Of a DNA stretch of 64,000 nt, positions 11,779 to 34,122 are shown piece by piece. The notes beneath the pieces are model-generated. The model saw only the letters and a list, made by a program, of their open reading frames with translations, made no database searches and was not told where the DNA came from. The translations under genes were made by a program, and so were the position numbers. This stretch comes from an uncultured Dehalococcoidia bacterium (GTDB lineage Bacteria > Chloroflexota > Dehalococcoidia > GIF9 > UBA5629): the NCBI GenBank assembly GCA_903844685.1, contig CAIMUM010000194.1:17292-81291 (forward strand). Direction: 5' to 3'. The first letter of the stretch is position 1, and every line of letters begins with the position of its first letter.

Positions 11779-13458
11779 TTAGTTCTTACCCTCCTGCTTC
11801 GCGATCTCTTCATCGCGGAGCTGGCGCTTGAGTATCTTGCCAACCGGGCTGACTGGCAACTCTTCCCTGAACTCGACAAATTTTGGTACCGAGTAGGAGG
11901 CCAGCTTCTCCTTGCATAAAGCAAGTATATCCTCTTCCTTCACCTTGTTTTTATAAGCTTCCCTGAGCACTATGAAAGCCTTGACTCGATCGCTGCCCGG
12001 CCTGTCCTTATCTGGCACGGCCACAGCCGCAGCCAGTTCCACACCCGGATGCTCGTAGAGCACCTTTTCCACCAGTATAGTATAGACCTTCATGCCTGAT
12101 ACGTTGGCCATATCTTTTACGCGGTCGGTAATATAGAAGTAGCCATCGTCGTCCATCCTGACCACGTCGCCCATGGGTAGCCAGCCATCTTCCACTAGGC
12201 CGCTGCCCGGCGTGGGCCAGTAACCCTGCATGATCTGCGGGCCGCGTACCCACAGCTCACCCTCCTTGCCGGGCTCGGCATCCTTGCCGGTCTCGAGATC
12301 GATGATCCTGGCTTCAACGTCCGGCATGGGAACCCCTATTGCGCCAAACTTCTTGACCGCGCACAGATCCGAGATGGATAAATTGGCATGGGTGCCCCCA
12401 CCCATCTCTGAAGCGCCGTAGCTATCGCCGATACTTGCCCCAGTCTCCTCTTTGAATTTGTCTATCATGTCCTTGCGCAGCGGCGCGGTTGAGGATACAA
12501 AGCCCGTTTTCACCTGCCCCAGTCCCATTTCCAGCAGCTTGGCATACTGGGTGGGTACACAGGATGCGCCGGTAGGCTCATTCTCCTTGATCACCTTCAT
12601 CAACGTTTTCAAATCGCGCGGGTCGGCGACCAGGTAGACTTCAAATGCCCAGAAGATACAGAATTGTGTATAAGTCATACCGAACTGGTGATATAGCGGT
12701 ACACCGATCAGCCAGGATATCTTCCCTTTTAACAGCGATTCCATGGGGCTGAAAGCCCAAGCCATGTGGCTAAGGTTGGCCATGCGACTGTTGTGCGTCA
12801 GCATCACTCCCTTGGGTATTCCCGTGGTACCGCCGGTGAAGATAAGCTCGGCCAGGTCCTTGCCCGGGTCGATGTCCACCTTCGGTGGCTCGGGCGCAGA
12901 CTTATCTATCAGGTCGCGGAACTGGTGTGCTCCGGGCACATGCTTCAATGATTCAGGTTGTATAGAATAATCTGCTACCGAGGTCACAATAATGCGAGTT
13001 ACCTTCGTATAATCTTGCATCTTGGTGACCACTTCGAGCATTGTGTCCATGCAGATGACGGTCTCCGCGCCAGACTCGCTAATTTCAGAAATTAGCTCGT
13101 TTTCCTTGTGCAGCGGGCTGCAGGGCACATGCGCGGCCCCGGCTTTGAGTATGCCAAAGTCACTGATGATGAACTGCGGGCAGTTGGCCAGTATGGTCGC
13201 TACCCGGTCACCTTTCTTTATGCCCAGCTTCACCAGTGCAGTGGCAAACCTGTCGGCCAGTTCCTTCAGTTCCTTGTAGGAGATAACCTTATCCATGTAA
13301 TGCACAGCCGGCCTATCGGCATAGTCACGCGCGCTATTGTCCAGCACGCTGTAAAGGGGCACATTGGGATAAGGTTTAATCGACTCGGGTAACTTAACAA
13401 GTCCCTGCTGTCCCAGGTCGTATTGTTTGAGCCAGGGTTTGGCTGCCGGTGATACCAT
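11779..13458 (-). CDS. AMP-dependent acyl-CoA synthetase/ligase
   Basis: AMP-binding motifs are present (TGGTTGIPKGV, YGASE, GDVVRMDDDGYFYITDRVKD). The start was moved to MVSPAA behind an AAGGAGGA RBS. Confidence 0.85.
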   Translation of the reverse strand: MVSPAAKPWLKQYDLGQQGLVKLPESIKPYPNVPLYSVLDNSARDYADRPAVHYMDKVISYKELKELADRFATALVKLGIKKGDRVATILANCPQFIISDFGILKAGAAHVPCSPLHKENELISEISESGAETVICMDTMLEVVTKMQDYTKVTRIIVTSVADYSIQPESLKHVPGAHQFRDLIDKSAPEPPKVDIDPGKDLAELIFTGGTTGIPKGVMLTHNSRMANLSHMAWAFSPMESLLKGKISWLIGVPLYHQFGMTYTQFCIFWAFEVYLVADPRDLKTLMKVIKENEPTGASCVPTQYAKLLEMGLGQVKTGFVSSTAPLRKDMIDKFKEETGASIGDSYGASEMGGGTHANLSISDLCAVKKFGAIGVPMPDVEARIIDLETGKDAEPGKEGELWVRGPQIMQGYWPTPGSGLVEDGWLPMGDVVRMDDDGYFYITDRVKDMANVSGMKVYTILVEKVLYEHPGVELAAAVAVPDKDRPGSDRVKAFIVLREAYKNKVKEEDILALCKEKLASYSVPKFVEFREELPVSPVGKILKRQLRDEEIAKQEGKN

Positions 13459-13617
13459 GACATCCTCCTTTTTCAACCTCAATTTGTTAGCGTAACATCA
13501 CTGTTTGAACTTGATCTCTACGATAGAATTGCTGCTCTGCCTTTGTGGTTAGTTCCGCAAAGACAATGATTATTGTAACACAGACATCAAAATTGGAAAA
13601 TACATAGAAAAAAATCA

Positions 13618-13646
13618 TTGACAGGGCAGGATATTAAACCTAAAAT
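13618..13646 (+). promoter_or_regulatory. Sigma70-like promoter (TTGACA-17 nt-TAAAAT) for the SCP2-led operon
   Basis: Consensus -35 at 13618-13623, an exact 17-nt spacer and the -10 at 13641-13646 lie ~30 nt upstream of the SCP2 RBS and ATG. Confidence 0.5.
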
Positions 13647-13678
13647 GTGGTAAATTTATCCATAACGGGAGGTAGAAA

Positions 13679-14086
13679 ATGGCCGTATTTGCTACACAGG
13701 AATGGCTCGACGAGATTGCCAAGCTATTGAATGAAGATCCCGCTTATGCAGAGGGCGCCAAGGGCTGGGAAGGGGATTTCCTGTATATCATCGAACCTGA
13801 CGAGCTTCAACCGAACCCCAGCTACTATTATATGGACCTGTACCACGGGAAATGCCGCAAGGCAGTAGTGCTCAAGGACCCCTCTAAAGTGAAGGCTGAA
13901 TTTGAGCTGTCAGCTACTTACTCGGTCTGGAAAAAGATACTGACTGGTGAACTCGACGGCATGAAGGCCATGATAACGCGCAAGATGAAGTTCAAGGGCG
14001 CTATCGCCAAGGTGATGAAGGACACCAAGTCCCAACAGGCCTATGCCAAGGCCCTTGCCCCACTTAAGACAGAATACGTTAAATAA
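13679..14086 (+). CDS. SCP2 sterol-carrier domain protein
   Basis: 135 aa SCP2-fold protein (…ITRKMKFKGAIAKVMKD…) behind a GGGAGGT RBS. Confidence 0.7.
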   Translation: MAVFATQEWLDEIAKLLNEDPAYAEGAKGWEGDFLYIIEPDELQPNPSYYYMDLYHGKCRKAVVLKDPSKVKAEFELSATYSVWKKILTGELDGMKAMITRKMKFKGAIAKVMKDTKSQQAYAKALAPLKTEYVK

Positions 14087-14161
14087 CTATCCAAATGCAT
14101 CCCAGTGCTGTGCACCATAGTATGCCTGTCCGCACTGATAATATTTCAGGAGGTAGCTCAT

Positions 14162-15325
14162 ATGTGGTATTTCCGTAATCCATTGATCGTGTTCGGTGAT
14201 GACGCGCTGGAACACCTCAGGGAGATTAAGGGTAAGCGCGCCCTAATTGTGACCGACGCAGTACTGGTCAAACTGGGTTTTGTAGATAAAGTCGCTAGAG
14301 AACTGAAGCACGCCGGTATCGAGCATCGCGTTTTCTCCGAGGTGGAACCGGACCCATCCGTTGATACTGTCAGAAAGGGCGCACAGGTTGCGCTTGAATA
14401 TGAACCTGACTGGCTGATCGGACTGGGTGGCGGTTCGGCTATGGACGCGGCCAAGATGATCTGGATGCTATATGCGCAACCCGACACGGAACCGTACGCC
14501 ATCGTACCCTTCCAGGATTACGACGCGCGCAGTAAAGCCCGCATGATATGCATACCGACCACGGCGGGCACAGGCTCAGAGGTGACCTGGTTCATGGTGG
14601 TTACGGACACAGTCGAGAGAAGGAAGATAGCCGTGGGCACTCCTGAGGCCTTACCGGATATCGCGATATTGGATTTCCGCTTGGTGGGAGATATGCCGAA
14701 GGGCCTGGTGGCCGATACCGGCATGGACGCGCTGACCCACTGTGTTGAGGGATTTGGCTCGACCTGGCGTACGGATTTCACCAATGGCCCTGCATTGATG
14801 GCAATGAAGTTGATCTTCAAATACCTTAAGCGCTCATACGACGACGCTTCGGATAAGGAGGCCAGGGAGCACATGCTCAACGCCTCAGCGCTGGCCAGCA
14901 TGGCCTGGAGCAACGGCATGGCCGGACTGGCGCATAATATGGGCCACGCGCTGGGCGGCTTCTTCCATGTTACACATGGCAAATCCGTCGGACTCTACCT
15001 GCCTTACAACATGCAGTACCTGACCGAGGCCGGGGCCGAAGTCTTCGCTGAGGCCGCCCGGTTCATTGGTCTGAAAGGGAAGACCGATCTTGAACTAACC
15101 CGGGGGTTAGTCAGCGGAATAAAGGATATGGCCCGCCATCTGGGACAGCCGTCATCAGTAAAAGAGCTTAACATTGACAAAGCCGCCTATGAGAAGGCGC
15201 TGCCGGAGATGGTTGCTCGGGCCATCGGTGAGGCCTCCACCCCCACTGTCCTGCGCGTACCGGATGAGAAGGACATGGAGCGCATGTTCCTCTATGCTTA
15301 TGAGGGCAAAACTATAGACTTTTAA
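14162..15325 (+). CDS. Iron-containing alcohol dehydrogenase
   Basis: The Fe-ADH family is indicated by GGGSAMDAAK and the His-rich metal site (HCVEG, HNMGHALGG). The start was set at MWYFRN behind AGGAGGT. Confidence 0.85.
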   Translation: MWYFRNPLIVFGDDALEHLREIKGKRALIVTDAVLVKLGFVDKVARELKHAGIEHRVFSEVEPDPSVDTVRKGAQVALEYEPDWLIGLGGGSAMDAAKMIWMLYAQPDTEPYAIVPFQDYDARSKARMICIPTTAGTGSEVTWFMVVTDTVERRKIAVGTPEALPDIAILDFRLVGDMPKGLVADTGMDALTHCVEGFGSTWRTDFTNGPALMAMKLIFKYLKRSYDDASDKEAREHMLNASALASMAWSNGMAGLAHNMGHALGGFFHVTHGKSVGLYLPYNMQYLTEAGAEVFAEAARFIGLKGKTDLELTRGLVSGIKDMARHLGQPSSVKELNIDKAAYEKALPEMVARAIGEASTPTVLRVPDEKDMERMFLYAYEGKTIDF

Positions 15326-15371
15326 GAGCCATGGATTATCGTTAAATTTTACATTACTTGGAGGTATATAC

Positions 15372-16556
15372 GTGGATTTCAGATTAACGCCTGAACAGGA
15401 AAAGCGCAGACAGGAATATCACGCGGTGTGCAGCGAGTTGGCCCTCAAGGCACCGCACCCTATCCTGGGGGAGAAGGGGATTTTCGGCACTGAGCATGGG
15501 TGGAAGTATTTTCGCTATTGTGCTAAAGAGTTTGCCAAAAGAGGCTGGCTGTCGCTGAGTTGGCCGGCGGAGTACGGCGGCAGGGGCGACCGTATGGACC
15601 AGGTCCTGCTGGCTGAGGCCATGGGTTATAACGGTGTCCCCGGCATCGACCCCTTCGGAGTAGGCATGCTGGCTCCCACCCTGCTGGCAGTTGGCAGCGA
15701 AGAGTTGAAAAAGGAGTTCCTACCACCTATAGCCAGATCTGATGTGATGTGGTGCGAACTCTGGAGCGAACCCAATGCTGGATCCGATCTTGCAGCTCTG
15801 ACAGCAACAGCCATCCGTAAAGGCGACGAATATGTCATCAACGGGCAAAAAACCTGGAACACCAATGCCCACAACGCCGACTGGGGATTTGGCATCTTCA
15901 AGAGTGACCCGGAGGGGAAGAAACACAGGAACCTCAGCTTTCTTCTGATGGATATGAAGACGCCCGGTATAACCGTGCGCCCGCTGTATTATATGAACGG
16001 CGGCCACATCCTGAACGAGGTATACTTCGACGACGCGCATGTGCCGGCCAGGAATCTGGTTGGAAAAGAACATGGGGGATGGGCGGTGGTCAACGTTCTG
16101 GCGGGGTTTGAGAGGTCCAACATGGGAGCGGTCGCGGGTATGCGCCGTGCGTTGGAAGAGATCGTCCACTACTGCAACGAAACAATTGTGAACGGGCAGC
16201 TTCGGTCACGGGATCCCATTATTCGCAACCGCCTGGCGCAATTAGCCTGCGAGATCGAGGCTATGTCTACACTGGGTTACCGCATCGCCGACCAGCAGAA
16301 CAGGGATGAAATGGGATTGATGGATGCCTCAGCTATGAAAGTGTTCTCGACCGAATTGGAAGAGCGTTTCGCGGCGCTGGCAGTAGACATTTTCGGGCCC
16401 TCCGGCCAGATTACGGAAGGCAGGTGGGCTCCCATGGGAGGGCATTGGATCAATGCCCTCCAGGAGAGCTTTGTGGGCACAATTTCCGCCGGTACCAATG
16501 AGATTCAGCGGAACATTATAGCCTGGTACGGGCTCGGCCTGCCCAGGATGAAATAA
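15372..16556 (+). CDS. Acyl-CoA dehydrogenase (ACAD) family
   Basis: GTG start behind GGAGGT. The ACAD N/M/C domains and the C-terminal GTNEIQRNII motif are present. It is a paralog of 62800..63984. Confidence 0.85.
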   Translation: MDFRLTPEQEKRRQEYHAVCSELALKAPHPILGEKGIFGTEHGWKYFRYCAKEFAKRGWLSLSWPAEYGGRGDRMDQVLLAEAMGYNGVPGIDPFGVGMLAPTLLAVGSEELKKEFLPPIARSDVMWCELWSEPNAGSDLAALTATAIRKGDEYVINGQKTWNTNAHNADWGFGIFKSDPEGKKHRNLSFLLMDMKTPGITVRPLYYMNGGHILNEVYFDDAHVPARNLVGKEHGGWAVVNVLAGFERSNMGAVAGMRRALEEIVHYCNETIVNGQLRSRDPIIRNRLAQLACEIEAMSTLGYRIADQQNRDEMGLMDASAMKVFSTELEERFAALAVDIFGPSGQITEGRWAPMGGHWINALQESFVGTISAGTNEIQRNIIAWYGLGLPRMK

Positions 16557-16739: not shown

Positions 16740-17702
16740 ATGCAAAGGCCGGTTTCGGCTTACACAGACCGTGATGACGCGTTGCATCCTTATGCTAATC
16801 CCGCGTATTACGAGTGGTGGTATTTAGATGCAAGGTTTGATAACGGGTATTCATGCGTCCTGTCCTGGCACTGGCTTAACGAGTTTTTAAAGCCTCACAT
16901 ACCCACCGTACAAATCTTCATTTATACGCCGGAAGGCAAGAGGTATGTAGGTATGGACGGGATAGATCCTAAAGACTGCTCCGCGAGCCAGGAGTATTGC
17001 AATGTCAAGATGGGGAGCAGCTACCTGCGGCAAGAGGGCAAGGTTTACAATATGTCAATGCACAGCCGTAATATTGGTTGCGATCTTACGTTCCAGGGCA
17101 CTATACCAGGTTGGAAAATCGGTGACGGCAAAATTCCTATTAATGGTGGAGAAATGGTTCAAGGTTGGGTAATTCCCTGCCCCAGGGCAAGGGTGGAAGG
17201 TAAACTATTTATCAAGGATAAAGAAATTCAGGTCAAAGGAGATGGATATCACGACCATAACTGGGGAAACGCCGATCTGTACGACATTTTCCATGGCTGG
17301 TACTGGGGGAGGTTAAACGATCCGAAATATACGATTATTTTCTCCAACACCCGGGCTTTAAACGGCCAGGTCCTGCCCTATCTCTACGTTGCCGATAATA
17401 AATCGACCCTGTTATCAACCGATAAATACGATTTTATCGTTGAGAAGGAGGAACCTGATACAGCTACCGGGCAGACGTATGCCAAAGCCCTTACACTAAA
17501 ATACAACGGCGACGATATGAAATTAAGGTGCAGGCTTGATACCAAGAGCGTGGTCGAACACACTCCACTCCCCAAGGTTAATGAATACAACATGTTCAAC
17601 TGGAGATTCCTGGCAGATTACGAAGGTGAGATCACGTTCGACGGTAATACCGATAAGATTAGAGGCGAAACAATTCACGAGAGGTTCCTTTTCAGGGGTT
17701 AA
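16740..17702 (+). CDS. Hypothetical protein, CrtC/AttH-like (carotenoid 1,2-hydratase family) lipocalin-fold hydratase candidate
   Basis: The N-terminal ...PAYYEWWYLDARFDNG... is reminiscent of the EWWY hallmark of the CrtC/AttH family. No cofactor motifs are present. The gene sits inside the beta-oxidation operon. Confidence 0.4.
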   Translation: MQRPVSAYTDRDDALHPYANPAYYEWWYLDARFDNGYSCVLSWHWLNEFLKPHIPTVQIFIYTPEGKRYVGMDGIDPKDCSASQEYCNVKMGSSYLRQEGKVYNMSMHSRNIGCDLTFQGTIPGWKIGDGKIPINGGEMVQGWVIPCPRARVEGKLFIKDKEIQVKGDGYHDHNWGNADLYDIFHGWYWGRLNDPKYTIIFSNTRALNGQVLPYLYVADNKSTLLSTDKYDFIVEKEEPDTATGQTYAKALTLKYNGDDMKLRCRLDTKSVVEHTPLPKVNEYNMFNWRFLADYEGEITFDGNTDKIRGETIHERFLFRG

Positions 17703-17789: not shown

Positions 17790-18935
17790 ATGCCTGACAG
17801 AGTTGGAATAGTGGCGGCCGCAATGACGAAATTTGAGGCGGCCAAACCCTGGCAACATCTCGCTGAACTGGTGCTGGAGGTGACGGACAAGGTTGTCGAA
17901 GCTGCCGGCATCTCACTTCAAAAAGATGTGGAAAGCATAGTCAGCTGTTCACAGGATCACTGGGACGGCAGGACGATTTCCTCGATGCCCATACCTGATG
18001 TTACCTGCGGCCACCTGAAGGATGAGTCAAAAGTAGCTGACGATGGCGCTTATGCCGTTCTCTATGGCGCCATGCATATTCTTTCGGGCGATCATAAATT
18101 AGTACTGGTTGTCAGTCACTGCGCTGAATCGCACACCGACGGCACTATTATTGAGAACTGGTCGATCGATCATATTTTCACGCGTATGCTTGGCCTTGAT
18201 TACACTTTGGCAGCAGCCATGCAGGCCAGAAGATATATGGACAAATACGGTATTACCCCCGAACAATTTGCCAAAGTGGTGGTTAAAAACAAGGGTAATG
18301 CCAAAAAGAATCCATACGCGCAGGATTCGGCAACATTGAGCGTAATTGACGTTCTGAAGTCGCAGATGCTGGCGGATCCTATTACGGTGATGGACAGGAA
18401 ACCTGTATCCGACGGCGCCTGTGCCATGATACTTGCCACGGAGGAGATCGCTAAAAAACTAACCGACAAACCGGTGTGGATAAAGGGAGCCGGCAACTGT
18501 TATGATCCACACTTTCTGGGGGACCGCGAACTGGCCGATTGCGACGCCCTAGAAACTGCATCCAAGAAAGCGTATAAGATGGCGGGCATCAAGAACCCGG
18601 TTAAAGAGATAGATGTTGTGGAACTATCTGAATATTATTCCTACCAGGAGCTTTTATGGACAGAGGGCCTTGGTTTATGCAAACGGGGAGAAGGCGGGAA
18701 GTTCATCGATAGCGGAAAGACACAATTAAATGGTGATATACCGGTTAACCCGTCGGGTGGCTTGCTATCTGGTATTCCCATTACCGTAGCAGGGATGTCA
18801 AGGGTTGCGGAGGCTGTCTGGCAATTGCAGGGCCGGTCGGGAGAGAGACAGATCCCTGGCGCTAAGCTGGCAGTAGCCCACGGCTGCGGTGGAATCTGCG
18901 GCCAGATGCATTGCGTCCTGGTATTGGGAAATTAG
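17790..18935 (+). CDS. SCP-x/Ltp-type thiolase-fold protein (catalytic His replaced: ...SGIPITVAG...)
   Basis: The thiolase superfamily fold resembles the paralogs at 20099, 21350 and 50052. The GHP motif is absent. A DUF35 pair follows. Confidence 0.7.
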   Translation: MPDRVGIVAAAMTKFEAAKPWQHLAELVLEVTDKVVEAAGISLQKDVESIVSCSQDHWDGRTISSMPIPDVTCGHLKDESKVADDGAYAVLYGAMHILSGDHKLVLVVSHCAESHTDGTIIENWSIDHIFTRMLGLDYTLAAAMQARRYMDKYGITPEQFAKVVVKNKGNAKKNPYAQDSATLSVIDVLKSQMLADPITVMDRKPVSDGACAMILATEEIAKKLTDKPVWIKGAGNCYDPHFLGDRELADCDALETASKKAYKMAGIKNPVKEIDVVELSEYYSYQELLWTEGLGLCKRGEGGKFIDSGKTQLNGDIPVNPSGGLLSGIPITVAGMSRVAEAVWQLQGRSGERQIPGAKLAVAHGCGGICGQMHCVLVLGN

Positions 18936-18968
18936 TAGAACTACGGATTAATTGGAGGTAATAGATAT

Positions 18969-19457
18969 ATGAAAGCTAAGCCGCAATTAGAACTGATTTA
19001 CCTGGATATGACCCTCAAAATGCCATTCAAGTGGAACACCGGTGAGCCACTGGGAGAATTTTTCAGGGAACTGAAGGCAAACGAAAAGATCTATGCAAAT
19101 CAATGCCCCACCTGCGGACGTAATTACTGCCCCCCGGCAAATATCTGTACCAGGGATCATTCGAGATGCAACGAAAAAGATAAATGGGTAGCCGTGGGGC
19201 CCAAGGGCACACTCTTAACCTTCTTCATCTGCGAGCAGTCATTTTTAATCCCAACCACAGGCGAGATGCTGGAGGTACCCTTTAGCGTGGGACTCGTTAT
19301 GCTTGACGGCGCGCCGGTTGTGCTTCAGCACTGTTTGCAGGAGACCGATGTGGAGAAAATTAAACCCGGCATGCGGGTAGAAGCCGTTTTCAAACCTAAA
19401 GAAGAGCGCAAGGGCAATATTTTCGACATTATACACTTCAAGACTATCAAGGAATAA
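18969..19457 (+). CDS. DUF35 protein (rubredoxin-like Zn ribbon + OB fold), thiolase/aldolase partner subunit
   Basis: A CPTCGRNYCPPANIC Zn-ribbon is followed by an OB-fold region. It is the ChsH2-DUF35 / BbsA type. Confidence 0.75.
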   Translation: MKAKPQLELIYLDMTLKMPFKWNTGEPLGEFFRELKANEKIYANQCPTCGRNYCPPANICTRDHSRCNEKDKWVAVGPKGTLLTFFICEQSFLIPTTGEMLEVPFSVGLVMLDGAPVVLQHCLQETDVEKIKPGMRVEAVFKPKEERKGNIFDIIHFKTIKE

Positions 19458-19481
19458 TAACTTTAAGAAGAGAGGCTAATA

Positions 19482-19952
19482 ATGGCTAACGAAGTTGTAA
19501 AGAAAGAACCTATGTTCACCGAAGGCTATGTGATCATGCCTTATAAGTACTCTGTGGGTACACTGGCAAGCAAGTTTTTCATCGAGATCAGAGACCATAA
19601 GAAAATAAACGGCGTGAAATGCCCTAAATGCAATATAGTAATAGTCCCTCCCCGGTCTGTATGCATAAAGTGTTTCAACAAAATCGAGGATCTGGTTGAA
19701 TTGAGCGGGAAAGGTACCCTGGTAACTTATACAGTGGCTCACTACGATTCGGCTGTTCAGGCGATGAAGCCACCGTATGCAATCGGAGTGATCAAGCTGG
19801 ACGGCGCTGATACAGCGATAACGCATTTTATCGGCGAAGTCGATTTCAAGGAGCTTAAGGCCGGCATGAAGCTGGAAGCTGTATTCAATGAGACCAGGAA
19901 TGCCAATATCCTTGATATCAAGTATTTCAAGCCGGTTAAAAATAAAGGATAA
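19482..19952 (+). CDS. DUF35 protein (Zn ribbon + OB fold), second copy
   Basis: The Zn ribbon is CPKCNIVIVPPRSVCIKC. Its architecture and size match the preceding gene. Confidence 0.75.
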   Translation: MANEVVKKEPMFTEGYVIMPYKYSVGTLASKFFIEIRDHKKINGVKCPKCNIVIVPPRSVCIKCFNKIEDLVELSGKGTLVTYTVAHYDSAVQAMKPPYAIGVIKLDGADTAITHFIGEVDFKELKAGMKLEAVFNETRNANILDIKYFKPVKNKG

Positions 19953-26041: not shown

Positions 26042-26986
26042 ATGGGTGACAGGCTAAAGGGTAAAGTAGCAGTCGTAACCGGTGCCGGCCGCGGCATTGG
26101 CAGGGCAGAGGCATTGGCCCTGGCAGCGGAGGGCGCCAAGGTTGTGGTCAACGACCTAGGTGGCGGCTCAGATGGAGCTGGCGCTTCAGCTTCGCCAGCG
26201 GAAGAGGTAGTCGCTGAAATCAAGAAGATAGGCGGTGATGCAGCAGCCAACTTCGATTCTGTGGCGACCTGGGCCGGTGGTGAGGGCATCATCAAGACTG
26301 CCCTCGATAAATTCGGCAGGATCGACATCGTGGTCAACAACGCGGGTATCCTGCGCGACAAAATGGTTTTCAATATGACTGAGGAAGAGTGGGACATCAT
26401 CATCAAGGTCCACCTTTACGGACACTTCTATGTGACCAGGGCGGCCGCCCCGCACCTGAGGCAGCAGCGCTGGGGACGCATCATCAACACCTCATCCATC
26501 GCCGGCCTGGGCAACATGGGACAGGCCAACTATGGAGCGGCCAAAGAAGGCATCGTGGGCTTTACACGCGTAGTAGCGAAGGACATGGGCAAATACGGCG
26601 TGACCTGCAACGCCATACGCCCCAATGCGGCCACCAGGATGACCGTGACCGATGAGCTTATGGCCGCCTGGAAAAAGCAGTTCGTGGACGCTGGCGGCAC
26701 CGATGAGGCTCAGTTCAAGGCTATGATAGAGAAGATGGTGCTTTCCTCCAAACCGGAGCACATCGCCCCAGTGGTAACCTGGCTGGCCACAGAGGACGCG
26801 GCCAATGTCAATGGCGCTACCTTCTTCATCAGTGGCAACGATATCGGTATCTATTCCGAACCGGCAGTGACGCAGAAGATCACCAAGGCTGAGGGCTTCT
26901 GGACTATTGATGAACTAGTAAAGATTACTCCCAAAGAGCTTACCAACAATTGGGTAAACCCGATGCCGGCAAAGCCAGCAAAATAA
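26042..26986 (+). CDS. SDR-family oxidoreductase resembling the (R)-3-hydroxyacyl-CoA dehydrogenase domain of MFE-2/HSD17B4
   Basis: TGAGRGIGRA is the NAD motif. The NDLGGG...G.G.S insertion is typical of MFE-2-type SDRs. YxxxK is present. 314 aa. Confidence 0.75.
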   Translation: MGDRLKGKVAVVTGAGRGIGRAEALALAAEGAKVVVNDLGGGSDGAGASASPAEEVVAEIKKIGGDAAANFDSVATWAGGEGIIKTALDKFGRIDIVVNNAGILRDKMVFNMTEEEWDIIIKVHLYGHFYVTRAAAPHLRQQRWGRIINTSSIAGLGNMGQANYGAAKEGIVGFTRVVAKDMGKYGVTCNAIRPNAATRMTVTDELMAAWKKQFVDAGGTDEAQFKAMIEKMVLSSKPEHIAPVVTWLATEDAANVNGATFFISGNDIGIYSEPAVTQKITKAEGFWTIDELVKITPKELTNNWVNPMPAKPAK

Positions 26987-27049: not shown

Positions 27050-28390
27050 TTAAGAATAATCGGCCTTAATGTGATCAGCGCAGATCATAGCAGAATTGGC
27101 CGCCGCGTTCATGCCTACACCCCTGCCTGTATAGCAGTCGCCCGCAAAATACAATCCCTTCATGCCGGGCATAGCTACTGGCATACGATAATTTCCGGTC
27201 AATCCGGGTGACCTGCCCAGCCCATCAATACCTACATAGTGGCCGTCCACTTTCCAGACTACGTTTTCTTCTACATCAGGGAACATCTGCTTAACAGTCT
27301 CCCAGAACTTGCCCAATGTATCTTTGCGGAACGCCTCATCCCGGGCCTGTTGTGGTGTACAACAAGCGCCGATAAAAGCAATCATATGCCCAGGCGGTGC
27401 AATTGTTTCATCAAAGTTAGTATGCCCGAGAATCTGCAGTGGCAAGCCAACCCCTGGTATCCTCCAGGCCGAAAGATAAACCGGTTCAGTAAACAGCGGC
27501 TTCCTTATTCCCATGGTAAAGCCCATGGATGCGCTTGTCTCATCTTTCAGTCGTACTAATCTGGAGTACCATTCACGCTGCAACGGGTCATCTGCAACCT
27601 CGATTATGCCAACTAATTGCCAGATGGGAATAGCAATAACCACGACGTTAGCATGATAAGATTCAGTTTCTGTAAATAATTCGGTTGTACCATTTTTATT
27701 TACAACCACTTTTATGACCGGTGCACCATATTTTATTTCGCAACCTTTTTGTATAGCGGCTTTGGCCATTGCTCCTGTCATCACTCCGATGCCACCTACT
27801 GGCATGCGGATATTGCCGAAACCGCCGTACCTCGCCCCGAATTTCATGCCCTCACGATAAATGGACACGAATTCTCCTGCTGAGATTATCTCAGCCCGTG
27901 TCAGCGTAGTTTGCACCATGCCGATAGTCTTCAGGTATTCCGCCACAGGTTCGGATTTTACCCGCTGTGAGATAAATTCAGCCAGAGAGGTTTTATCCAG
28001 CACATCTATCTCGGCATCAGTCATAGGTACAAAGCTGTCTTCCAACTCAGCTAATTGCTTGACCTCCGCATCCGTTAAGTTGAAATACTGCCCTGCGTCC
28101 TTCCACTTATCACCATCGAAGATACCCATTCCCTGCATCGGGCGTGTCCAGGCTATGTCCACTCCAATCTTTTTCAGGAGGTCCGCGCAAGCTGATTTAT
28201 CGCCGTTATCCACGCAATGCGTCCCAGTATCAATTCTCCACCCGCCGGGCATCTCCTTGGTTTTAGCCCTGCCACCTGGTGTCCGCGTTTTTTCCAGCAA
28301 CAGTATCCTCATCCCACGCCCTTGTAGCAATCCTGCCACACCTAACCCGGCAATTCCCGCACCAATTACTATTGCATCATAAGCATTCAT
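27050..28390 (-). CDS. FAD-dependent oxidoreductase, CrtI/CrtD/amine-oxidase (phytoene desaturase-like) family
   Basis: The N-terminal dinucleotide fold DAIVIGAGIAGL...LLLEK is followed by GGR. Length 446 aa. Confidence 0.7.
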   Translation of the reverse strand: MNAYDAIVIGAGIAGLGVAGLLQGRGMRILLLEKTRTPGGRAKTKEMPGGWRIDTGTHCVDNGDKSACADLLKKIGVDIAWTRPMQGMGIFDGDKWKDAGQYFNLTDAEVKQLAELEDSFVPMTDAEIDVLDKTSLAEFISQRVKSEPVAEYLKTIGMVQTTLTRAEIISAGEFVSIYREGMKFGARYGGFGNIRMPVGGIGVMTGAMAKAAIQKGCEIKYGAPVIKVVVNKNGTTELFTETESYHANVVVIAIPIWQLVGIIEVADDPLQREWYSRLVRLKDETSASMGFTMGIRKPLFTEPVYLSAWRIPGVGLPLQILGHTNFDETIAPPGHMIAFIGACCTPQQARDEAFRKDTLGKFWETVKQMFPDVEENVVWKVDGHYVGIDGLGRSPGLTGNYRMPVAMPGMKGLYFAGDCYTGRGVGMNAAANSAMICADHIKADYS

Positions 28391-28403: not shown

Positions 28404-29993
28404 CTATTTTTTTGCGAACTCCTTCTCTATTTCCTTATACAGGTCAAGCTTCTTTACCTTACCGAGTAAAGTGAGCGGTAATTGTTCCCTGAATGATATA
28501 TCCTCAGGTATTTTGAATCTGGCCAACCGGTCTTTCAGAAACCCTTTGATTGCCTCAGCCGTCGGTTGAGTACCCGGCTTCGGAATTACATATGCCCGGC
28601 CTACTTCACCGTACACAGGGTGCGGCCTGCCCACTACAGCTACCATGAAGACATCCGGATGCTGCGCAATCGCCTCTTCCACTTCTGGCGGGTAGACGTT
28701 CTCGCCACCGCGGATATACATCTCCTTTTTTCTGCCCACGATGGTCAGGTACCCGTCTTTATCCAGTACACCCATATCGCCGGTATGAAAGAAACCCTTT
28801 TTATCAAATACCCGCTTATCTTCATCCGGCCGCTTCCAGTAACCCTTCATGACCGCATCGCCCTTGATAGCGATCTCACCTACCTTTCCTTCAGGCAGCA
28901 TATTGTCATCCATGTCCATTATGACCAGTTCAATACCATTAATGGGAACACCCACAGTATATTTGAGTTTTTCTTCACCATGCTCTATCTGCGTGAAAGT
29001 GATCGCACCGCTCACCTCGGTCAAGCCGTAGGCGTTCTGTGGCATTACGCCAAACTTATTTTTAATAGCCATGATCAATTCCGAAGGGCAGGGCTGGCTG
29101 GATACGATAGCAGCTTTGATTGAACTTAGATCATATTTGTCTATATTAGGACTCAGCAGCTCCATGGCCCATTGCGCCGGCACCTGTCCCATCACAGTGA
29201 CCTTTTCATCCTGAATTAATTGCAGTGTTTTCTCAGGATCGAACATGTCCATCATCACCAGTTTATTGCCTGCATTGAGACAGGCGATCACCGCCATCAC
29301 CACACCACCCACGTGATTTAAAGGTATATTTAATAGCAAAGTTTCGTCCGTGCCCTCGAACTTGGAAGCGATCAACTGGCCGTCGGTGTAGGCGATCAAG
29401 TTCTTATGCGTCAGCACCGAAGCCTTGGGTATACCGGTTGTGCCGGATGTAAAAAGGAAAAGCGCAGGGTCATCCGGTTTAACTTTTGCCTTGTATTTTG
29501 CCAGTTCCGAACCTGGTTCGGTCAGGAAAGCTCCCCAGGATATCATACCGCCCGTGGCCTTTTCTTTATTTAGAATAACCACGTGTTTGAGTGTTGGCAG
29601 TTCTCCGCGTATAGTTTCCAGGTTTTTAACAAAGTCCATACCAAAGAAGCCATCTGCCATCACCAGTACGGATATCTCTGCATTATTGATAACGAACTTG
29701 ATTTCCTGAGGAGTGAACCTCCAGCTTATCGGGACGGTTATAGCCCCGATCTTGGCCGCACCTAGGTAAGTGAAGATGAATTCGGGCCAGTTGGGGATAT
29801 ATACTCCAACCCTGTCACCGCGTTGTACACCCAGCTTTATCAGTCCCATGGCAGCCAGGTCCGCTTGCCTGTTGTATTCCGCCCAGGTTACACGCCTGTC
29901 TTTGTATACCAGCGCATCCTTCCCCGCTTTCTCCGCCGCATGTTTATTAAAGAAATCGCCCAGCACCCTGACTGATTTATCTAACTCGCTCAT
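28404..29993 (-). CDS. AMP-dependent acyl-CoA synthetase/ligase
   Basis: AMP-binding motifs are present (TSGTTGIPKA, YGLTE, TGDMGVLDKDGYLTIVGRKKE). The RBS is GGGGAGG. Confidence 0.85.
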   Translation of the reverse strand: MSELDKSVRVLGDFFNKHAAEKAGKDALVYKDRRVTWAEYNRQADLAAMGLIKLGVQRGDRVGVYIPNWPEFIFTYLGAAKIGAITVPISWRFTPQEIKFVINNAEISVLVMADGFFGMDFVKNLETIRGELPTLKHVVILNKEKATGGMISWGAFLTEPGSELAKYKAKVKPDDPALFLFTSGTTGIPKASVLTHKNLIAYTDGQLIASKFEGTDETLLLNIPLNHVGGVVMAVIACLNAGNKLVMMDMFDPEKTLQLIQDEKVTVMGQVPAQWAMELLSPNIDKYDLSSIKAAIVSSQPCPSELIMAIKNKFGVMPQNAYGLTEVSGAITFTQIEHGEEKLKYTVGVPINGIELVIMDMDDNMLPEGKVGEIAIKGDAVMKGYWKRPDEDKRVFDKKGFFHTGDMGVLDKDGYLTIVGRKKEMYIRGGENVYPPEVEEAIAQHPDVFMVAVVGRPHPVYGEVGRAYVIPKPGTQPTAEAIKGFLKDRLARFKIPEDISFREQLPLTLLGKVKKLDLYKEIEKEFAKK

Positions 29994-30385: not shown

Positions 30386-31519
30386 CTAAAGACCAATCTG
30401 CCGGGCAACTATGTCTCTATGGAAGTCTGCATCTCCATAGGCAAGCTCACCAGCCTTGGCACGGCGGAAGTAGAGATGCATGTCATGATCCATGGTAAAG
30501 CCGATCGCGCCAAAAATCTGGTGGGCAAGTACGGCCACACGCTTGAATGCCTCGCTGGTCCAGGCTTTAGCTATGGATACCTCCTTGTCAGCGGGTAATC
30601 CCTCACTGACCGCCCAGGCTGCTTTATAGGTTATAAACCGTGAGCCATCCACATCCGTAACCATATTGGCGCAGTAGTGCTGGATTGCCTGGAAACTGCC
30701 GATGGGACGGTTAAACTGCACCCTTTCCTTGGCATAATTTACCGCCATATCCAGCGAGGCCTGAGCGCCTCCTACCATCTCCGCACACTTGGCCACGGCT
30801 GCCTTCTTTAACAAGGATTGGATTACACTCCAGCCTTTATCCAGATTACCTATAATATGCGCTTTGGGAACACGGACGTTTTCAAGTATAACCTCGCACA
30901 ACTTATCGCGTGCCAGCGTCTTCAGCAGGGTGTATTTAACGCCGGCACTTTTTGCATCGACAATGAAAATAGTGATCCCATCATCCGGATTTGCACTCTT
31001 TTTGGTCCTTGCGACAACTAAAATATAATCGGCAACATTGGCATCGGGCACGAAAAGCTTGGTACCATTCAACACATAGCCATCCCCTTTGGCTTTCGCA
31101 GTGGTATTTATCGATGCGGCATCATAGGTGCCATCCAGTTCCGTAAGCGCGACGGTTATTATCAGCTCCCCCGTGCATATCTTACCCAGATATTCCTTTT
31201 TCTGCTCCTCATTGCCGGCTTCAAGGAGAGTATAACCGGCTAAAACAACTGTTGAAAAGAAAGGACCTGGTACAATGTTATAGCCCATCTCATCGAGGAG
31301 CACCGTCAAATCAAGAAAACTACCCCCGTTGCCCCCGTATTTCTCCGGGAAGGATAGCCCCATCCAGCCCAACTGCGCCATCTTATTCCAAAGGTCCCTG
31401 GAATAACCCGTGTCGCTCTCATCCAGTTCCCGGACCAGCTTCTTGGGGCACTCCTTAGCCAGGAACTCTTGCGCCGATTTCTTTAACATCTCCTGCTCTT
31501 CAGTTAAACCCAGATCCAT
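30386..31519 (-). CDS. Acyl-CoA dehydrogenase family protein (short, 377 aa; possible subunit of heteromeric ACAD)
   Basis: ACAD fold. It starts MDLGLTEEQ and is a paralog of 52886..54019. Confidence 0.8.
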   Translation of the reverse strand: MDLGLTEEQEMLKKSAQEFLAKECPKKLVRELDESDTGYSRDLWNKMAQLGWMGLSFPEKYGGNGGSFLDLTVLLDEMGYNIVPGPFFSTVVLAGYTLLEAGNEEQKKEYLGKICTGELIITVALTELDGTYDAASINTTAKAKGDGYVLNGTKLFVPDANVADYILVVARTKKSANPDDGITIFIVDAKSAGVKYTLLKTLARDKLCEVILENVRVPKAHIIGNLDKGWSVIQSLLKKAAVAKCAEMVGGAQASLDMAVNYAKERVQFNRPIGSFQAIQHYCANMVTDVDGSRFITYKAAWAVSEGLPADKEVSIAKAWTSEAFKRVAVLAHQIFGAIGFTMDHDMHLYFRRAKAGELAYGDADFHRDIVARQIGL

Positions 31520-31572: not shown

Positions 31573-32769
31573 CTATTTGCGAGGAAGCCCTAACCCTCTC
31601 TGCGCAATGATATTACGCTGGATCTCGGACGTGCCGGCGCCGATAACTGCCGAGATAGAATCAAGGTATCCTACGCTGTACTGCCCACGCATGGGCGCAT
31701 ACTTGGAATCATGTTCCAGCTGTCCATAAATTCCTAATATCTCGGTCCCAACACTGGCCAGCTTCCTGCTTAATTGAGTTGCAAAAAGCTTTAGTACAGA
31801 AGCTTCAATATTGGGCATCTGGTTATTATCCATCATCCAGGCAGTCTTAAAGAAGAAGTTATAGGCAACCTCGATATCAATTGCCAGGTCAGCCAGCTTC
31901 CGGCGCACTGACGGGTTGGCTGACAGCGGTTCCCCGTTCCGGGTAGTCCCCTTGACGTATTTAACCAGTTCATCGAATTGGCGGCGGAAACCGCCAATGG
32001 CAATAGCAAGACGCTCGTAATCCAATGCGACCATGAGATAAAGAAAGCCAAGATTCTTCTCGCCAACTATATTTTTCTTGGGCACACGGACATTGTCGAA
32101 AAACACCTCGTTGAAGGAATGAAAGCCAACAATATTTATTAATGGACGTATCGTTATGCCCGGTGTTTTATTATCTACGATAAATAATGTCGTGCCTTTA
32201 TGAGATGGCACTTTCATGTCCGTCCTGGCCACCATCCAGGCATAATCGGCTATATGCGCTCCACTGCTCCATATCTTTTGCCCGTTAACAATCAGGTCAT
32301 CCCCGTCTTCTACCGCAGTCGTCTGGATAGCCGCCAGGTCTGACCCGGCATTGGGCTCACTGTAGGCCAGCCAGAACCTGAGATTGCCCTTGATAATCCT
32401 GGGTATCCACTCCTTCTTTTGCTCTTCGCTGCCAAAGCGCATGATGGTAGGCGCGGCAATCAATGTGGAGATGTCCGTTCCCGGCGCCCTGTGATAGCTC
32501 AGGCGCTCGGCGAAAATCGCCTGCTCTATGAACGAGTGTCCGCCACCGCCGAGCTCCTTCGGCCAGGCCATAGTCAGCCAGCCCTCCTCACCCATCCTTT
32601 CACGAAAACGGTCTATAGCGGGATCACGCTCTTCGAACTCCAGTATTGCCCCGTATGCCCCCGGCCAGTAGAGGCACCTGTCGGTATACCCGGGAGGCAT
32701 CGCTGACAGGACAAATTGCTCTGCTTTTTGTTGAAAGGCCTTTTCAGTTTCACTTAATTGGAAATCCAT
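31573..32769 (-). CDS. Acyl-CoA dehydrogenase family protein
   Basis: ACAD fold with the C-terminal GTSEIQRNIIAQRGLGLPRK motif. Confidence 0.8.
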   Translation of the reverse strand: MDFQLSETEKAFQQKAEQFVLSAMPPGYTDRCLYWPGAYGAILEFEERDPAIDRFRERMGEEGWLTMAWPKELGGGGHSFIEQAIFAERLSYHRAPGTDISTLIAAPTIMRFGSEEQKKEWIPRIIKGNLRFWLAYSEPNAGSDLAAIQTTAVEDGDDLIVNGQKIWSSGAHIADYAWMVARTDMKVPSHKGTTLFIVDNKTPGITIRPLINIVGFHSFNEVFFDNVRVPKKNIVGEKNLGFLYLMVALDYERLAIAIGGFRRQFDELVKYVKGTTRNGEPLSANPSVRRKLADLAIDIEVAYNFFFKTAWMMDNNQMPNIEASVLKLFATQLSRKLASVGTEILGIYGQLEHDSKYAPMRGQYSVGYLDSISAVIGAGTSEIQRNIIAQRGLGLPRK

Positions 32770-32808
32770 TATATTCCCTCGTTCTACCGTATTAAGAAAT
32801 CAATATGC

Positions 32809-33999
32809 TTATTTCCTTGGCAATCCCAGTCCCCGCATGGCGATGATATTTTTCTGTATCTCGTTGGTCCCTCCTCCAACGCCAATGGACAAAGATGCCA
32901 AATAGCTTCGCGCTATCTCAGCCTGGCCAATTGCCCACTTGGAGCCATTCATCAATTGGCCGTACTTGCCGAGCACTCGCATGCCGACGTCTGTCATACG
33001 CCTCAGCAGCTCGCTGCCAAACAGCATAGCCATCGAAGACTCATAGTTTGAATGGCCGCCCGTTTTGTAAATCCAGGCGATGCGGTAACACAGCATCCTC
33101 GCCACCTCAATTTCAATTGCCATTTCAGCTAATTCATTTCTTAGCGCAGGATCCTCGGATAAAAACCTGCCATTGCGTTTGGTGGACTTTGCATATCCCA
33201 CTAAGAAATCGAGAAGCAACTGATTACCTGCTGCCGTCTGCACACCGGAGCGTTCAAAATCGAGAGCGACAGCCAGCTGGAACCATCCGTTATTTTTTTC
33301 TCCGACAAGGTTCTCCTTAGGGATGCGCACATCATCAAAAAACACTTCGTTGAATGAGTGGCAACCCAAGATATTAATCAAGGGGCGAACCGTGATTCCG
33401 GGGGTTTTCATATCAACAACGAACATGCTCATATTTCTATGCTTGGGAACATCGGGATCGGTTACGGCGGCCAGCCAGCAGTAATCCGCATAATGAGCGT
33501 AGCTGCACCATATTTTTTGGCCGTTGATAATGTACTCATCCCCTTTCTCCGTAGCCCTGGTTTGAAGTGAGGCAAGATCGGAACCCGCGTTAGGTTCGCT
33601 GTAACCGAGACAGAATACGATATCGCCTTTCGCAACCCTGGAGACGTAGTCCTTTTTTTGCTGTTCATTACCGAAATGTTGCAAAGCCATGCCTACCCAG
33701 TTAACCGTTATCTCGGTCTCAACGCCTACTGGTGCATTGTGATAGGTGAGTTCTTCAGCGAGTATCAGCCTTTTGATATGTCCCAGGTCGGCCCCACCAT
33801 ATTCTCTGGGATAAGCGGGAGCAAGCCATCCCTTAACGCCAAGTTTTTTTTGGAATGCCCTGGCAATCTTCCAGGATTCGTCAGTTTCCTGCCAGTAGCC
33901 CGTGGTAAGCTCAAACCAGCGGGGAGGTATATTTGCCTTCAACCAATCCTTGACTTCCTGCCGGAATGCTTCTTCCTCCGCTGTGAATTTGAAATCCAT
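32809..33999 (-). CDS. Acyl-CoA dehydrogenase family protein
   Basis: ACAD fold. The start was set at MDFKFTAEEE behind GGAGGAGG. The track ORF extends 38 codons further upstream without an RBS. Confidence 0.8.
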   Translation of the reverse strand: MDFKFTAEEEAFRQEVKDWLKANIPPRWFELTTGYWQETDESWKIARAFQKKLGVKGWLAPAYPREYGGADLGHIKRLILAEELTYHNAPVGVETEITVNWVGMALQHFGNEQQKKDYVSRVAKGDIVFCLGYSEPNAGSDLASLQTRATEKGDEYIINGQKIWCSYAHYADYCWLAAVTDPDVPKHRNMSMFVVDMKTPGITVRPLINILGCHSFNEVFFDDVRIPKENLVGEKNNGWFQLAVALDFERSGVQTAAGNQLLLDFLVGYAKSTKRNGRFLSEDPALRNELAEMAIEIEVARMLCYRIAWIYKTGGHSNYESSMAMLFGSELLRRMTDVGMRVLGKYGQLMNGSKWAIGQAEIARSYLASLSIGVGGGTNEIQKNIIAMRGLGLPRK

Positions 34000-34122
34000 C
34001 TGGAACCTCCTCCCTGTTATATTACTGATAAATTGGTCTGAATGATGGGATTGTTCAAATAACGGCTGTATCGCATAAAATTCCACACTATATACTGGGT
34101 GCACTGAATTCAAAGAGGAATA

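Follow-up and report, generated by a model that had tools for sequence, protein, structure and literature searches.

The question raised by the DNA described here is which compounds an uncultured bacterium degrades with a 22-kb gene cluster that is devoted entirely to acyl-CoA and lipid chemistry. The cluster occupies positions 11779-34113 of a 64-kb stretch (hereafter the window) of contig CAIMUM010000194.1, and its host is an uncultured, presumably anaerobic member of the Chloroflexota, probably of the Dehalococcoidia. An open reading frame listing, together with Pfam, NCBIfam, and PDB sequence searches, delivered 19 called genes (89% coding), all with an acyl-CoA or lipid function; since sub-blocks of these genes are also syntenic in metagenome-assembled genomes (MAGs) of several phyla, their clustering is beyond chance. 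An earlier note on this DNA had described the region as an island encoding a peroxisome-like toolkit for the beta-oxidation of methyl-branched acyl-CoAs. In the compositional sense, it is not an island, as the fraction of guanine plus cytosine (0.504) matches that of the rest of the window (0.496) and no integrase, transposase, or tRNA genes were found at its borders in the window annotation; horizontal transfer as an island was rejected on these grounds. The same cluster is present on metagenome contigs of JGI sample 3300023311 and ENA assembly ERZ1426844, and members of the 90%-identity clusters of the window proteins bear Chloroflexi/Chloroflexota labels. It is a catabolic cluster of the beta-oxidation type with aldolase-like thiolase-fold proteins, the core of which is a conserved, uncharacterised module shared across phyla. 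With fair confidence, it may be considered to serve the uptake of an acid, its activation with CoA, and a modified beta-oxidation of a branched or beta-hindered chain, with retro-aldol cleavage of a carbon-carbon bond.

Three genes of the cluster encode proteins of the SCP2-thiolase fold (Pfam Thiolase_C_1), namely Thl1 (17790-18935, + strand), Thl2 (20099-21265, +), and the Thl2 paralogue Thl3 (21350-22519, +), Thl1 and Thl2 being recognised in the PDB search as well. Their active-site positions were read off an alignment with Thl4 (50052-51245, -), the fourth SCP2-type thiolase of the window, which lies outside the cluster and is catalytically complete (Cys88, HDCF motif, and His344 all kept). 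None of Thl1, Thl2, and Thl3 possesses the nucleophilic cysteine, its site being occupied by glycine; the HDCF motif reads SEYY in Thl1 and YDPC in Thl2 and Thl3; and the active-site histidine is replaced by isoleucine or asparagine across the three proteins, by asparagine in both Thl2 and Thl3. Because the thiolase nucleophile and the histidine are absent, these proteins cannot, judged from their residues, act as SCPx does. The SCP-x-type genes of the earlier note are hence right as to fold for all three and wrong as to function. Thl2 and Thl3 are 70% identical and share their active-site substitutions, which include a tyrosine at the position of the HDCF histidine (Tyr285 in Thl2, Tyr286 in Thl3). 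Thl2 orthologues of Dehalococcoidia, Desulfobacterota, Spirochaetota, and Leptospirales always carry T-T-G-G-T at the nucleophile site, a conserved tyrosine at the HDCF histidine position (E-[ILV]-Y-x-P), and asparagine instead of the active-site histidine. The steroid side-chain retro-aldolases TcLtp2 (YDHF) and CtSal (YDCY) use a tyrosine at this same position as their catalytic base (PMC12329534). Thl2 is predicted to be the catalytic subunit of a retro-aldolase. The Thl1 orthologues lack the cysteine too and are variable at their active-site positions, so that Thl1 is probably a non-catalytic partner subunit.

Between the genes for Thl1 and Thl2 stand two genes of the DUF35 family, DUF35a (18969-19457, +; Pfam zf-ChsH2 and OB_ChsH2_C), which combines an OB-fold with a zinc ribbon carrying four cysteines, and DUF35b (19482-19952, +; Pfam). 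Two DUF35 genes adjoin the thiolase-fold genes in every locus examined, and DUF35 proteins, stand-alone ones included, serve as 'staples' of thiolase-fold aldolases (PMC10398937). Thl1, Thl2 (or Thl3), DUF35a, and DUF35b are read here as a putative heteromeric, non-thiolytic carbon-carbon lyase that would work like Ltp2 and Sal. The gene order in the window is Thl1-DUF35-DUF35-Thl2-Thl3, versus Thl1-Thl2-DUF35-DUF35 in relatives. Downstream of Thl3, a thiolase remnant of 71 C-terminal residues (22586-22801, -), preceded by in-frame stop codons and 73% identical to the C-terminus of a thiolase in the related locus L009, is probably a pseudogene relic that marks a local rearrangement. It is followed by a classical thiolase of the FadA/BktB type (22951-24171, -; Pfam Thiolase_N and Thiolase_C), which scores 396 bits against TIGR01930, over the cut-off of 240 bits.

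The association of these genes was followed through other genomes by tblastn of the window proteins against all fetched loci and by means of the gene tables of the contigs. The four-gene block Thl1-Thl2-DUF35-DUF35 is very widespread (1810 Thl2 homologues at E <= 1e-30) and is frequently accompanied by BKACE, an AMP ligase, a Liv-type transporter, and a pair of acyl-CoA dehydrogenases (ACADs). A subclade of AttH/CrtC-like proteins, at least 37% identical to the one encoded in the cluster (16740-17702, +; Pfam CrtC, 23.8 bits), adjoins this block in 11 loci from four phyla, belonging to Dehalococcoidia (L001, the cluster of the window itself, and L006-L009), Thermodesulfobacteriota/Desulfobacterota (L019, L021, and L025), Spirochaetota (L022 and L023), and Leptospirales (L020). 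In the spirochaetes and Leptospirales, the genes run 3HCDH-crotonase-thiolase-Thl1-Thl2-DUF35-DUF35-AttH-flavoprotein, and a second thiolase/Thl/DUF35 set comes after them. Other sub-blocks recur as well, such as the SCP2-FeADH-AttH trio (L017), the ACAD triplet next to AttH (L009 and L010), and the pair of ligase 2 and flavoprotein in Dehalococcoidia and Syntrophales (L006, L008, and L092). Transporters of a similar kind border the module in L006, L008, and L090, and a TetR regulator accompanies it in relatives. The nearest species-level genome is that of L009, an uncultured Dehalococcoidia MAG from lake sediment, with an AttH-like protein that is 75% identical and ACADs that are 70-81% identical to those of the window; its cluster contains a MaoC gene. 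The association of these families is conserved, not accidental. The AttH-like protein was rejected as a generic marker of the pathway, as its homologues in L002-L005 (42-68% identity) and all those below 35% identity stand in unrelated contexts; only one AttH subclade is linked to the module. BKACE genes, which adjoin the four-gene block in L006-L009, L025, and L089-L091, are absent from the window, and the literature search found no paper naming BKACE together with DUF35, nor a described function for the Thl/DUF35/AttH module. The Leptospirales operon of L020 ends with genes of the PEP-mutase/isocitrate-lyase and aconitase families (18398-20579), a methylcitrate-cycle-like pair that gives a weak hint of propionyl-CoA as a product of the pathway.

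The AttH/CrtC-like protein lacks a signal peptide. Its structure model (predicted local distance difference test, pLDDT, of 95) matched AttH (2ICH; E 2e-12, TM-score 0.69) and kievitone hydratase (7A0T; TM-score 0.64) in Foldseek, followed by fungal pericyclases and 25-phosphosteroid lyase (9G4C; TM-score 0.55-0.60), at 10-15% identity to the solved members. In an alignment of 38 homologues, W143 and Y170-H-D172 are invariant, with the same spacing as W241 and Y266-x-D268 of the carotenoid 1,2-hydratase CrtC, in which Trp241 and Tyr266-x-Asp268 are essential (PMC4717167); this correspondence, and that of Gln141 with CrtC His239, is one of spacing and of a weak NCBIfam alignment. All characterised hydratases of the AttH/CrtC family form tertiary alcohols by adding water to double bonds of the isoprene type (bioRxiv 10.1101/2025.10.20.683597), and 25-phosphosteroid lyase, also of the AttH fold, acts in anaerobic cholesterol degradation. 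The cluster protein is predicted to be a hydratase or lyase that uses acid catalysis on a non-activated carbon-carbon double bond. It shares the double beta-barrel with carotenoid 1,2-hydratase, kievitone hydratase, hydroxy-GDGT synthase, and 25-phosphosteroid lyase, and has its invariant Trp and Tyr-x-Asp at the spacing known from CrtC, but differs in apparently having Gln141 in place of CrtC His239 and in its context, which is a catabolic acyl-CoA operon rather than pigment or lipid biosynthesis.

The flavoprotein gene of the cluster (27050-28390, -; Pfam, NCBIfam) encodes a phytoene-desaturase (PDS)/CrtISO-like member of the amine-oxidase/phytoene-desaturase family. Its model (pLDDT 93) gave the best TM-scores with the uncharacterised archaeal proteins 3KA7 and 3NRN, followed by rice PDS (5MOG) and the carotenoid desaturase 4REP, amine oxidases scoring more poorly, which places the modelled protein structurally nearest to the PDS/CrtI-like clade. 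The JGI annotation of its protein cluster is prolycopene isomerase or phytoene-dehydrogenase-like. A flavoprotein with a Pfam Amino_oxidase assignment, 23-26% identical to that of the window, adjoins the AttH gene in L020 and L023 and lies elsewhere in the locus in L025; the adjacency in L020 and L023 recalls the desaturase and hydratase pair Ted and Hgs (bioRxiv 10.1101/2025.10.20.683597). A kinship with the covalent-flavin enzymes CtmAB (limonene dehydrogenase) and delta-24 desaturase could not be established; the published motif G-F-[LR]-x-[NS]-[TL]-H-A (PMC11061730) is out of register with GWRIDTGTH58C of the flavoprotein, in which His58 is invariant in the family.

Seven ACAD genes are present in the window, four of them in the cluster, namely ACAD1 (15372-16556, +; large, PimC-like), ACAD2 (30386-31519, -; small, PimD-like), ACAD3 (31573-32769, -; large), and ACAD4 (32809-34113, -; large, with its true start probably near 33999), assigned by Pfam, NCBIfam, and alignment. 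All seven proteins were aligned and compared at the positions of the catalytic glutamates of MCAD (E376) and of the IVD type. The IVD-type glutamate ('[FY]ER', 'FER' in ACAD1) is kept and the MCAD-type glutamate is absent in ACAD1, ACAD3, ACAD4, ACAD6, and ACAD7, and neither position is filled in ACAD2 and ACAD5. Large and small ACAD genes are encoded together (ACAD4, ACAD3, and ACAD2; likewise ACAD6 and ACAD5), and because the small ones lack a catalytic glutamate, the products of neighbouring genes probably combine into heteromers in which only one type of subunit is catalytic. Such an arrangement of one catalytic and one non-catalytic subunit also occurs in PimCD and in the steroid ChsE enzymes. 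ACAD2 as a steroid subunit of the ChsE/IpdE type is itself unsupported, as generic ACADs rank above these in the PDB search.

The gene at 24764-25957 (+), which had been equated with AMACR, indeed encodes a family III CoA-transferase (Pfam CoA_transf_3, 389 bits), but one of the YfdE/Frc/SUGCT type, with PDB scores of 265 bits for YfdE, 247 bits for a Frc-like protein, and 227 bits for SUGCT, versus 95 bits for MCR/AMACR (aligned residues 6-265 only). At JGI, its 90%-identity cluster goes by the names formyl-CoA or oxalate CoA-transferase. It carries the motif 'GYD' with Asp140, where racemases presumably have 'GHD'. The next gene (26042-26986, +; Pfam, PDB search) encodes a single-domain short-chain dehydrogenase/reductase (SDR) of 314 amino acids, which was correctly recognised as MFE-2-type; its top three PDB matches are the MFE-2 dehydrogenase domains of yeast, human, and rat (2ET6, 1ZBQ, and 1GZ6; E 1e-94 to 1e-65), and its best NCBIfam match is PRK07791 (284 bits, under the cut-off of 373 bits). 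It is predicted to be a (3R)-hydroxyacyl-CoA dehydrogenase-like enzyme, R-specific in type. Hydratase-2 and SCP2 domains are not fused to it, SCP2 and MaoC being separate genes, as the earlier note had expected of the parts of MFE-2; the SDR and SCP2 genes lie in the cluster and the MaoC genes outside it (48474-50032), Pfam revealing neither a MaoC nor a crotonase hydratase within 11779-34113.

The stand-alone SCP2 lipid carrier (13679-14086, +; Pfam SCP2, 42.9 bits) is likewise as the earlier note had it, with Thermus SCP2 as its best PDB match (2CX7/1WFR; E 2.5e-13). Pfam, NCBIfam, and PDB further agree with that note on the four ACADs, on an iron-containing alcohol dehydrogenase (Fe-ADH; 14105-15325, +; Pfam Fe-ADH and ADH_Fe_C), called with 387 amino acids in other assemblies, which would put its start near 14162, and on two AMP-forming acyl-CoA ligases. 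Ligase 1 (11779-13482, -; Pfam AMP-binding and AMP-binding_C) has 559 amino acids in the gene calls of other assemblies, and its NCBIfam matches, PimA among them, are all under their cut-offs; ligase 2 (28404-29993, -; Pfam, NCBIfam) is paired with the flavoprotein gene. Missing from the earlier note were the two DUF35 genes, the AttH/CrtC-like gene, the classical thiolase, and the thiolase remnant. Ligase 1 runs in the same direction as, and continues into, the genes of a Liv-type ABC importer that belongs with the cluster, comprising two ATPases (6913-7629 and 7632-8390, -; Pfam ABC_tran), two permeases (8377-9387 and 9394-10242, -; Pfam BPD_transp_2), and a solute-binding protein (10313-11587, -; Pfam Peripla_BP_6). 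Short intergenic gaps suggest operons from SCP2 through Thl3, of CoA-transferase and SDR, of ligase 2 and flavoprotein, and of ACAD4, ACAD3, and ACAD2. Taken as a whole, the window resembles the peroxisomal AMACR/MFE-2/SCPx system in containing an MFE-2-type SDR, MaoC, SCP2, and the SCP2-thiolase fold, and it differs from it in its unfused domains, a family III member of the transferase type, Thl1-3 without cysteine and histidine, and hydratases outside the cluster. As an analogy, the peroxisome adds little, the same domains (ChsB1/Hsd4A, ChsH, and Ltp2) being encoded separately in bacterial steroid side-chain degradation (PMC8204306, PMC12329534).

Gene content, missing catalytic residues, folds, and cross-phylum synteny are direct observations, whereas the following pathway steps are all deduced from protein families and gene order. 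Firstly, the acid would be imported by the Liv-type ABC transporter (6913-11587). Secondly, its thioester would be made or exchanged by the two AMP-forming ligases and the YfdE/SUGCT-type CoA-transferase. Thirdly, the flavoprotein paired with ligase 2 and the AttH/CrtC-like hydratase may alter non-activated double bonds, with SCP2 and Fe-ADH handling a hydrophobic alcohol or carbonyl intermediate. Fourthly, the thioester would be desaturated by the heteromeric ACADs, each with a catalytic large and a glutamate-less small subunit. Fifthly, where a secondary alcohol forms, the MFE-2-type SDR would act along with R-specific MaoC hydratases whose genes lie at a distance of 15 kb. Sixthly, where oxidation of the beta-carbon to a ketone is impossible, the Thl1 scaffold with Thl2 or Thl3 (catalytic tyrosine) and the two DUF35 'staples' would perform a retro-aldol cleavage of the carbon-carbon bond, as Ltp2 and Sal do on steroid side chains. 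Lastly, ordinary 3-oxoacyl-CoAs would go to the classical thiolase. A methyl-branched (isoprenoid-like) or alicyclic substrate is favoured, because retro-aldol cleavage is needed where the carbon bearing the beta-hydroxyl group is tertiary or a ring member, the formation or removal of tertiary alcohols at trisubstituted double bonds is the task of AttH-type enzymes, and PDS-like flavoproteins desaturate or isomerise isoprenoid chains. The transporter, the ligases, and the TetR regulator in relatives are typical of catabolic operons.

Several points weigh against this pathway and this substrate. The second aldolase residue is absent from Thl2, Tyr344 of TcLtp2 having a conserved asparagine as its equivalent, and a conserved proline instead of cysteine occurs two positions past the tyrosine, at the site of CtSal Cys304. 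Moreover, Thl2 scores 55 bits against Ltp2 (6OK1) and 75 bits against 9MYR, versus 89-115 bits against thiolases and acyltransferases; with the second catalytic residue missing and the sequence no closer to Ltp2 or 9MYR than to thiolases, the complex is not placed inside the Ltp2/Sal family. AttH homologues below 35% identity are unlinked to the four-gene block. Other phyla pair the module with an S-specific 3HCDH and a crotonase, so that the R-specific, 'peroxisome-like' flavour is a trait of the Chloroflexota version rather than a conserved property. For a Liv-type importer, water-soluble acids are a likelier cargo than sterols or carotenoids, and unbranched dicarboxylic acids would equally suit the PimCD-like ACADs and the dicarboxylate-type CoA-transferase. 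A racemase of the AMACR type, which a 2-methyl-branched (pristanate-like) substrate would normally need, is not present. Finally, the functions given to the Thl1/Thl2, AttH, and flavoprotein clades are predictions from sequence and fold. None of the NCBIfam equivalog thresholds for Bbs, Pim, steroid CasG, IpdE2, and BaiCD was reached.

Among the alternatives, the least improbable, though still unlikely, is that straight-chain fatty or dicarboxylic acids of medium or long chain length are degraded by a Pim-like beta-oxidation in which the cysteine-less Thl proteins would be accessory or inactive. In NCBIfam, the ACADs come nearest to the large subunit PimC (262, 222, and 188 bits) and the small subunit PimD (221 bits), ligase 1 has PimA among its matches, the nearest relatives of the CoA-transferase (YfdE, Frc, and SUGCT) act on dicarboxylates, and a Liv-type ABC system is adjacent, as is presumably also the case for the pim region. 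The pim genes of Rhodopseudomonas palustris (PimA, PimCD) likewise combine a large and a small ACAD with an adjacent ligase. However, the scores reach about one-third of the equivalog cut-offs (262 versus 624 bits for PimC, 221 versus 653 bits for PimD, in a cut-off range of 624-706 bits), and pim has an ordinary thiolase and neither an AttH-like protein, a PDS-like flavoprotein, nor a cysteine-less thiolase fold. A Pim-like route further leaves the cross-phylum Thl1/Thl2 proteins with their two DUF35 partners, the AttH-like hydratase, and the PDS-like flavoprotein unexplained. It is these same features, along with the heteromeric ACADs, that argue for the part of the earlier note that stands, namely that the locus does not encode plain straight-chain beta-oxidation.

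A bbs-like beta-oxidation of fumarate-addition products (alkyl- or arylsuccinates) or of similar intermediates of anaerobic hydrocarbon and aromatics degradation is very unlikely; it would employ a family III CoA-transferase, an ACAD, an SDR, and thiolase/DUF35 in the manner of benzylsuccinate degradation. The earlier note had proposed a comparison with the bbs operon. BbsB is the top PDB match of Thl1 (148 bits), and BbsF-like, BbsD-like, and, for DUF35b, BbsA-like matches occur. The scores fall far short of the equivalog cut-offs, NCBIfam giving 152, 90, and 84 bits for BbsB versus 750, and a weak 35.8 bits for BbsA versus 250. In addition, BbsB is a true cysteine thiolase, whereas Thl1-3 are not, and the 64-kb window contains neither a fumarate-adding glycyl-radical synthase nor a BbsH-type crotonase.

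A shade less likely still is the degradation of a sterol or bile-acid side chain by an anaerobic Chloroflexota counterpart of ChsE/ChsH/ChsB1/Ltp2, with the AttH-like protein corresponding to 25-phosphosteroid lyase and the old yellow enzyme (OYE) at the start of the window to BaiCD. The toolkits run in parallel, with heteromeric ACADs, a ChsB1-like SDR, MaoC, a tyrosine-bearing thiolase fold with DUF35, and SCP2 (PMC8204306), the AttH fold is common to 25-phosphosteroid lyase, and BaiCD is the best family of the OYE protein. Indeed, the steroid side-chain enzymes (ChsE, ChsH, and ChsB1/Hsd4A; Ltp2, Sal, and Atf1 with DUF35) belong to the same families in separate genes, and share with the window the cysteine-less thiolase fold with tyrosine at the HDCF histidine site, the adjacent DUF35, the pairs of catalytic and non-catalytic ACADs, and the R-specific type of dehydrogenase. 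They differ in having one aldolase with a MaoC-DUF35 fusion, where the cluster has two distinct thiolase-fold subunits and two free DUF35 proteins, and the NCBIfam scores indicate no orthology (CasG 321 versus 750 bits, IpdE2 166 versus 450 bits, BaiCD 519 versus 825 bits). Generic ACADs, not ChsE or IpdE, are the best solved relatives of ACAD2, the fold match with 25-phosphosteroid lyase is weaker than that with AttH or kievitone hydratase, and ring-degradation and Mo-hydroxylase genes are lacking from this window of an anaerobic Chloroflexota host, for which a Liv-type importer of sterols would be odd. Most improbable of all is that the complexes of thiolase-fold and DUF35 proteins carry out condensation or acyl transfer (PhlABC-like or archaeal thiolase/HMGCS/DUF35-like) in an at least partly biosynthetic locus, since, despite PhlC and an archaeal thiolase among the PDB matches and a real thiolase beside an HMGCS-DUF35 fusion elsewhere in the window, both PhlC and the archaeal thiolase use the cysteine that is absent from Thl1-3, and the surrounding genes (importer, ligases, ACADs, and, in relatives, TetR repressors) have a catabolic stamp.

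Within the preferred reading, that of a modified beta-oxidation with retro-aldol cleavage, a narrower proposal, itself quite unlikely, is that the four-gene block, the AttH-like protein, and the PDS-like flavoprotein form a carboxylase-independent bypass of the beta-methyl block in isoprenoid-derived acids in anaerobes. The flavoprotein or an ACAD would place a trisubstituted double bond, which the AttH-like protein would hydrate to a tertiary 3-hydroxy-3-methyl intermediate, and the heteromeric, cysteine-less thiolase-fold retro-aldolase would split the latter into acetyl-CoA and a ketone. If true, this bypass would substitute for the biotin-dependent Atu-type route and would open terpenoid carbon to subsurface Dehalococcoidia, Desulfobacterota, and spirochaetes. 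More generally, peat, lake, and marine sediments abound in non-dehalogenating Dehalococcoidia and related bacteria, the diet of which is mostly guessed from gene lists headed 'beta-oxidation'. The cluster indicates that some annotated 'thiolases' cannot be thiolases and belong instead to a heteromeric family that has two DUF35 partners and is widespread. If the substrate is terpenoid, alicyclic, or otherwise branched, the cluster would represent a new way for anaerobes to use recalcitrant carbon of lipid origin, and a new retro-aldolase and hydratase subclass of possible biocatalytic use; if the substrate is an ordinary fatty or dicarboxylic acid, the locus would be routine.

Outside the cluster, a second module (48474-55327, -) may supply the hydratases that the cluster lacks. 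It contains three MaoC-like R-hydratases in a HadABC-like arrangement (48474-48944, 49063-49530, and 49562-50032, -; Pfam), of which the second, MaoC2, is HadB-like and possesses the D-x-N-P-x-H motif. It further contains Thl4, with the archaeal thiolase 6ESQ as its best solved relative (209 bits), a fusion of an HMG-CoA-synthase (HMGCS)-like protein with DUF35 (51280-52722, -; Pfam and NCBIfam, 223 bits, slightly under the cut-off of 244 bits), and a small and a large ACAD (ACAD5, 52886-54019, and ACAD6, 54038-55327, both -; Pfam, alignment). The complete Thl4 and its HMGCS-like neighbour with DUF35 resemble the archaeal acetoacetyl-CoA thiolase/HMG-CoA synthase/DUF35 complex (6ESQ/6ET9), from which they differ in that DUF35 is fused to the HMGCS-like protein and the genes lie between MaoC hydratases and ACADs. 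The seventh ACAD (ACAD7, 62800-63984, +) is 62% identical to ACAD1. A tRNA-Asp(GTC) gene (55720-55795, -) is located upstream of the second module.

The OYE/FadH-like enoyl reductase that the earlier note had counted within the cluster is not there, the cluster flavoprotein being phytoene-desaturase-like; the sole such gene lies at 992-3007 (+) and encodes a FadH/BaiCD-like flavoenzyme with an OYE and a pyridine-nucleotide-disulphide-reductase domain (Pfam). Its NCBIfam scores of 519 bits for BaiCD, 516 bits for mycofactocin OYE_2, and 486 bits for bilirubin reductase are all under the cut-offs. In the peat Dehalococcoidia MAG SPRUCE 159 (L028, 193-12943), three AttH paralogues are interleaved with three Liv-type solute-binding proteins and adjoin an OYE/FadH enzyme that is 75% identical to that of the window. 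The OYE reductase may be functionally tied to AttH proteins, although it lies outside the cluster here. Between the OYE gene and the cluster are found, besides the transporter, a URO-D-family methyltransferase next to a corrinoid (B12-binding) protein (3018-4998, -), a pair that looks like corrinoid-dependent methyl transfer or demethylation, and a GH29 alpha-L-fucosidase (5301-6710).

Downstream of the cluster, a RuBisCO large-subunit-like protein (42600-43913) is encoded beside a class III aminotransferase (40983-42449), with an acetyl-CoA hydrolase/transferase-family protein (39219-40526), a TetR regulator (44259-44933), and an FGGY kinase (44995-46530) nearby; the region 39219-46530 may represent a RuBisCO-like-protein pathway unrelated to the cluster. 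A thiamine pyrophosphate (TPP) riboswitch (57689-57797, +) lies directly upstream of thiC (57822-59138).

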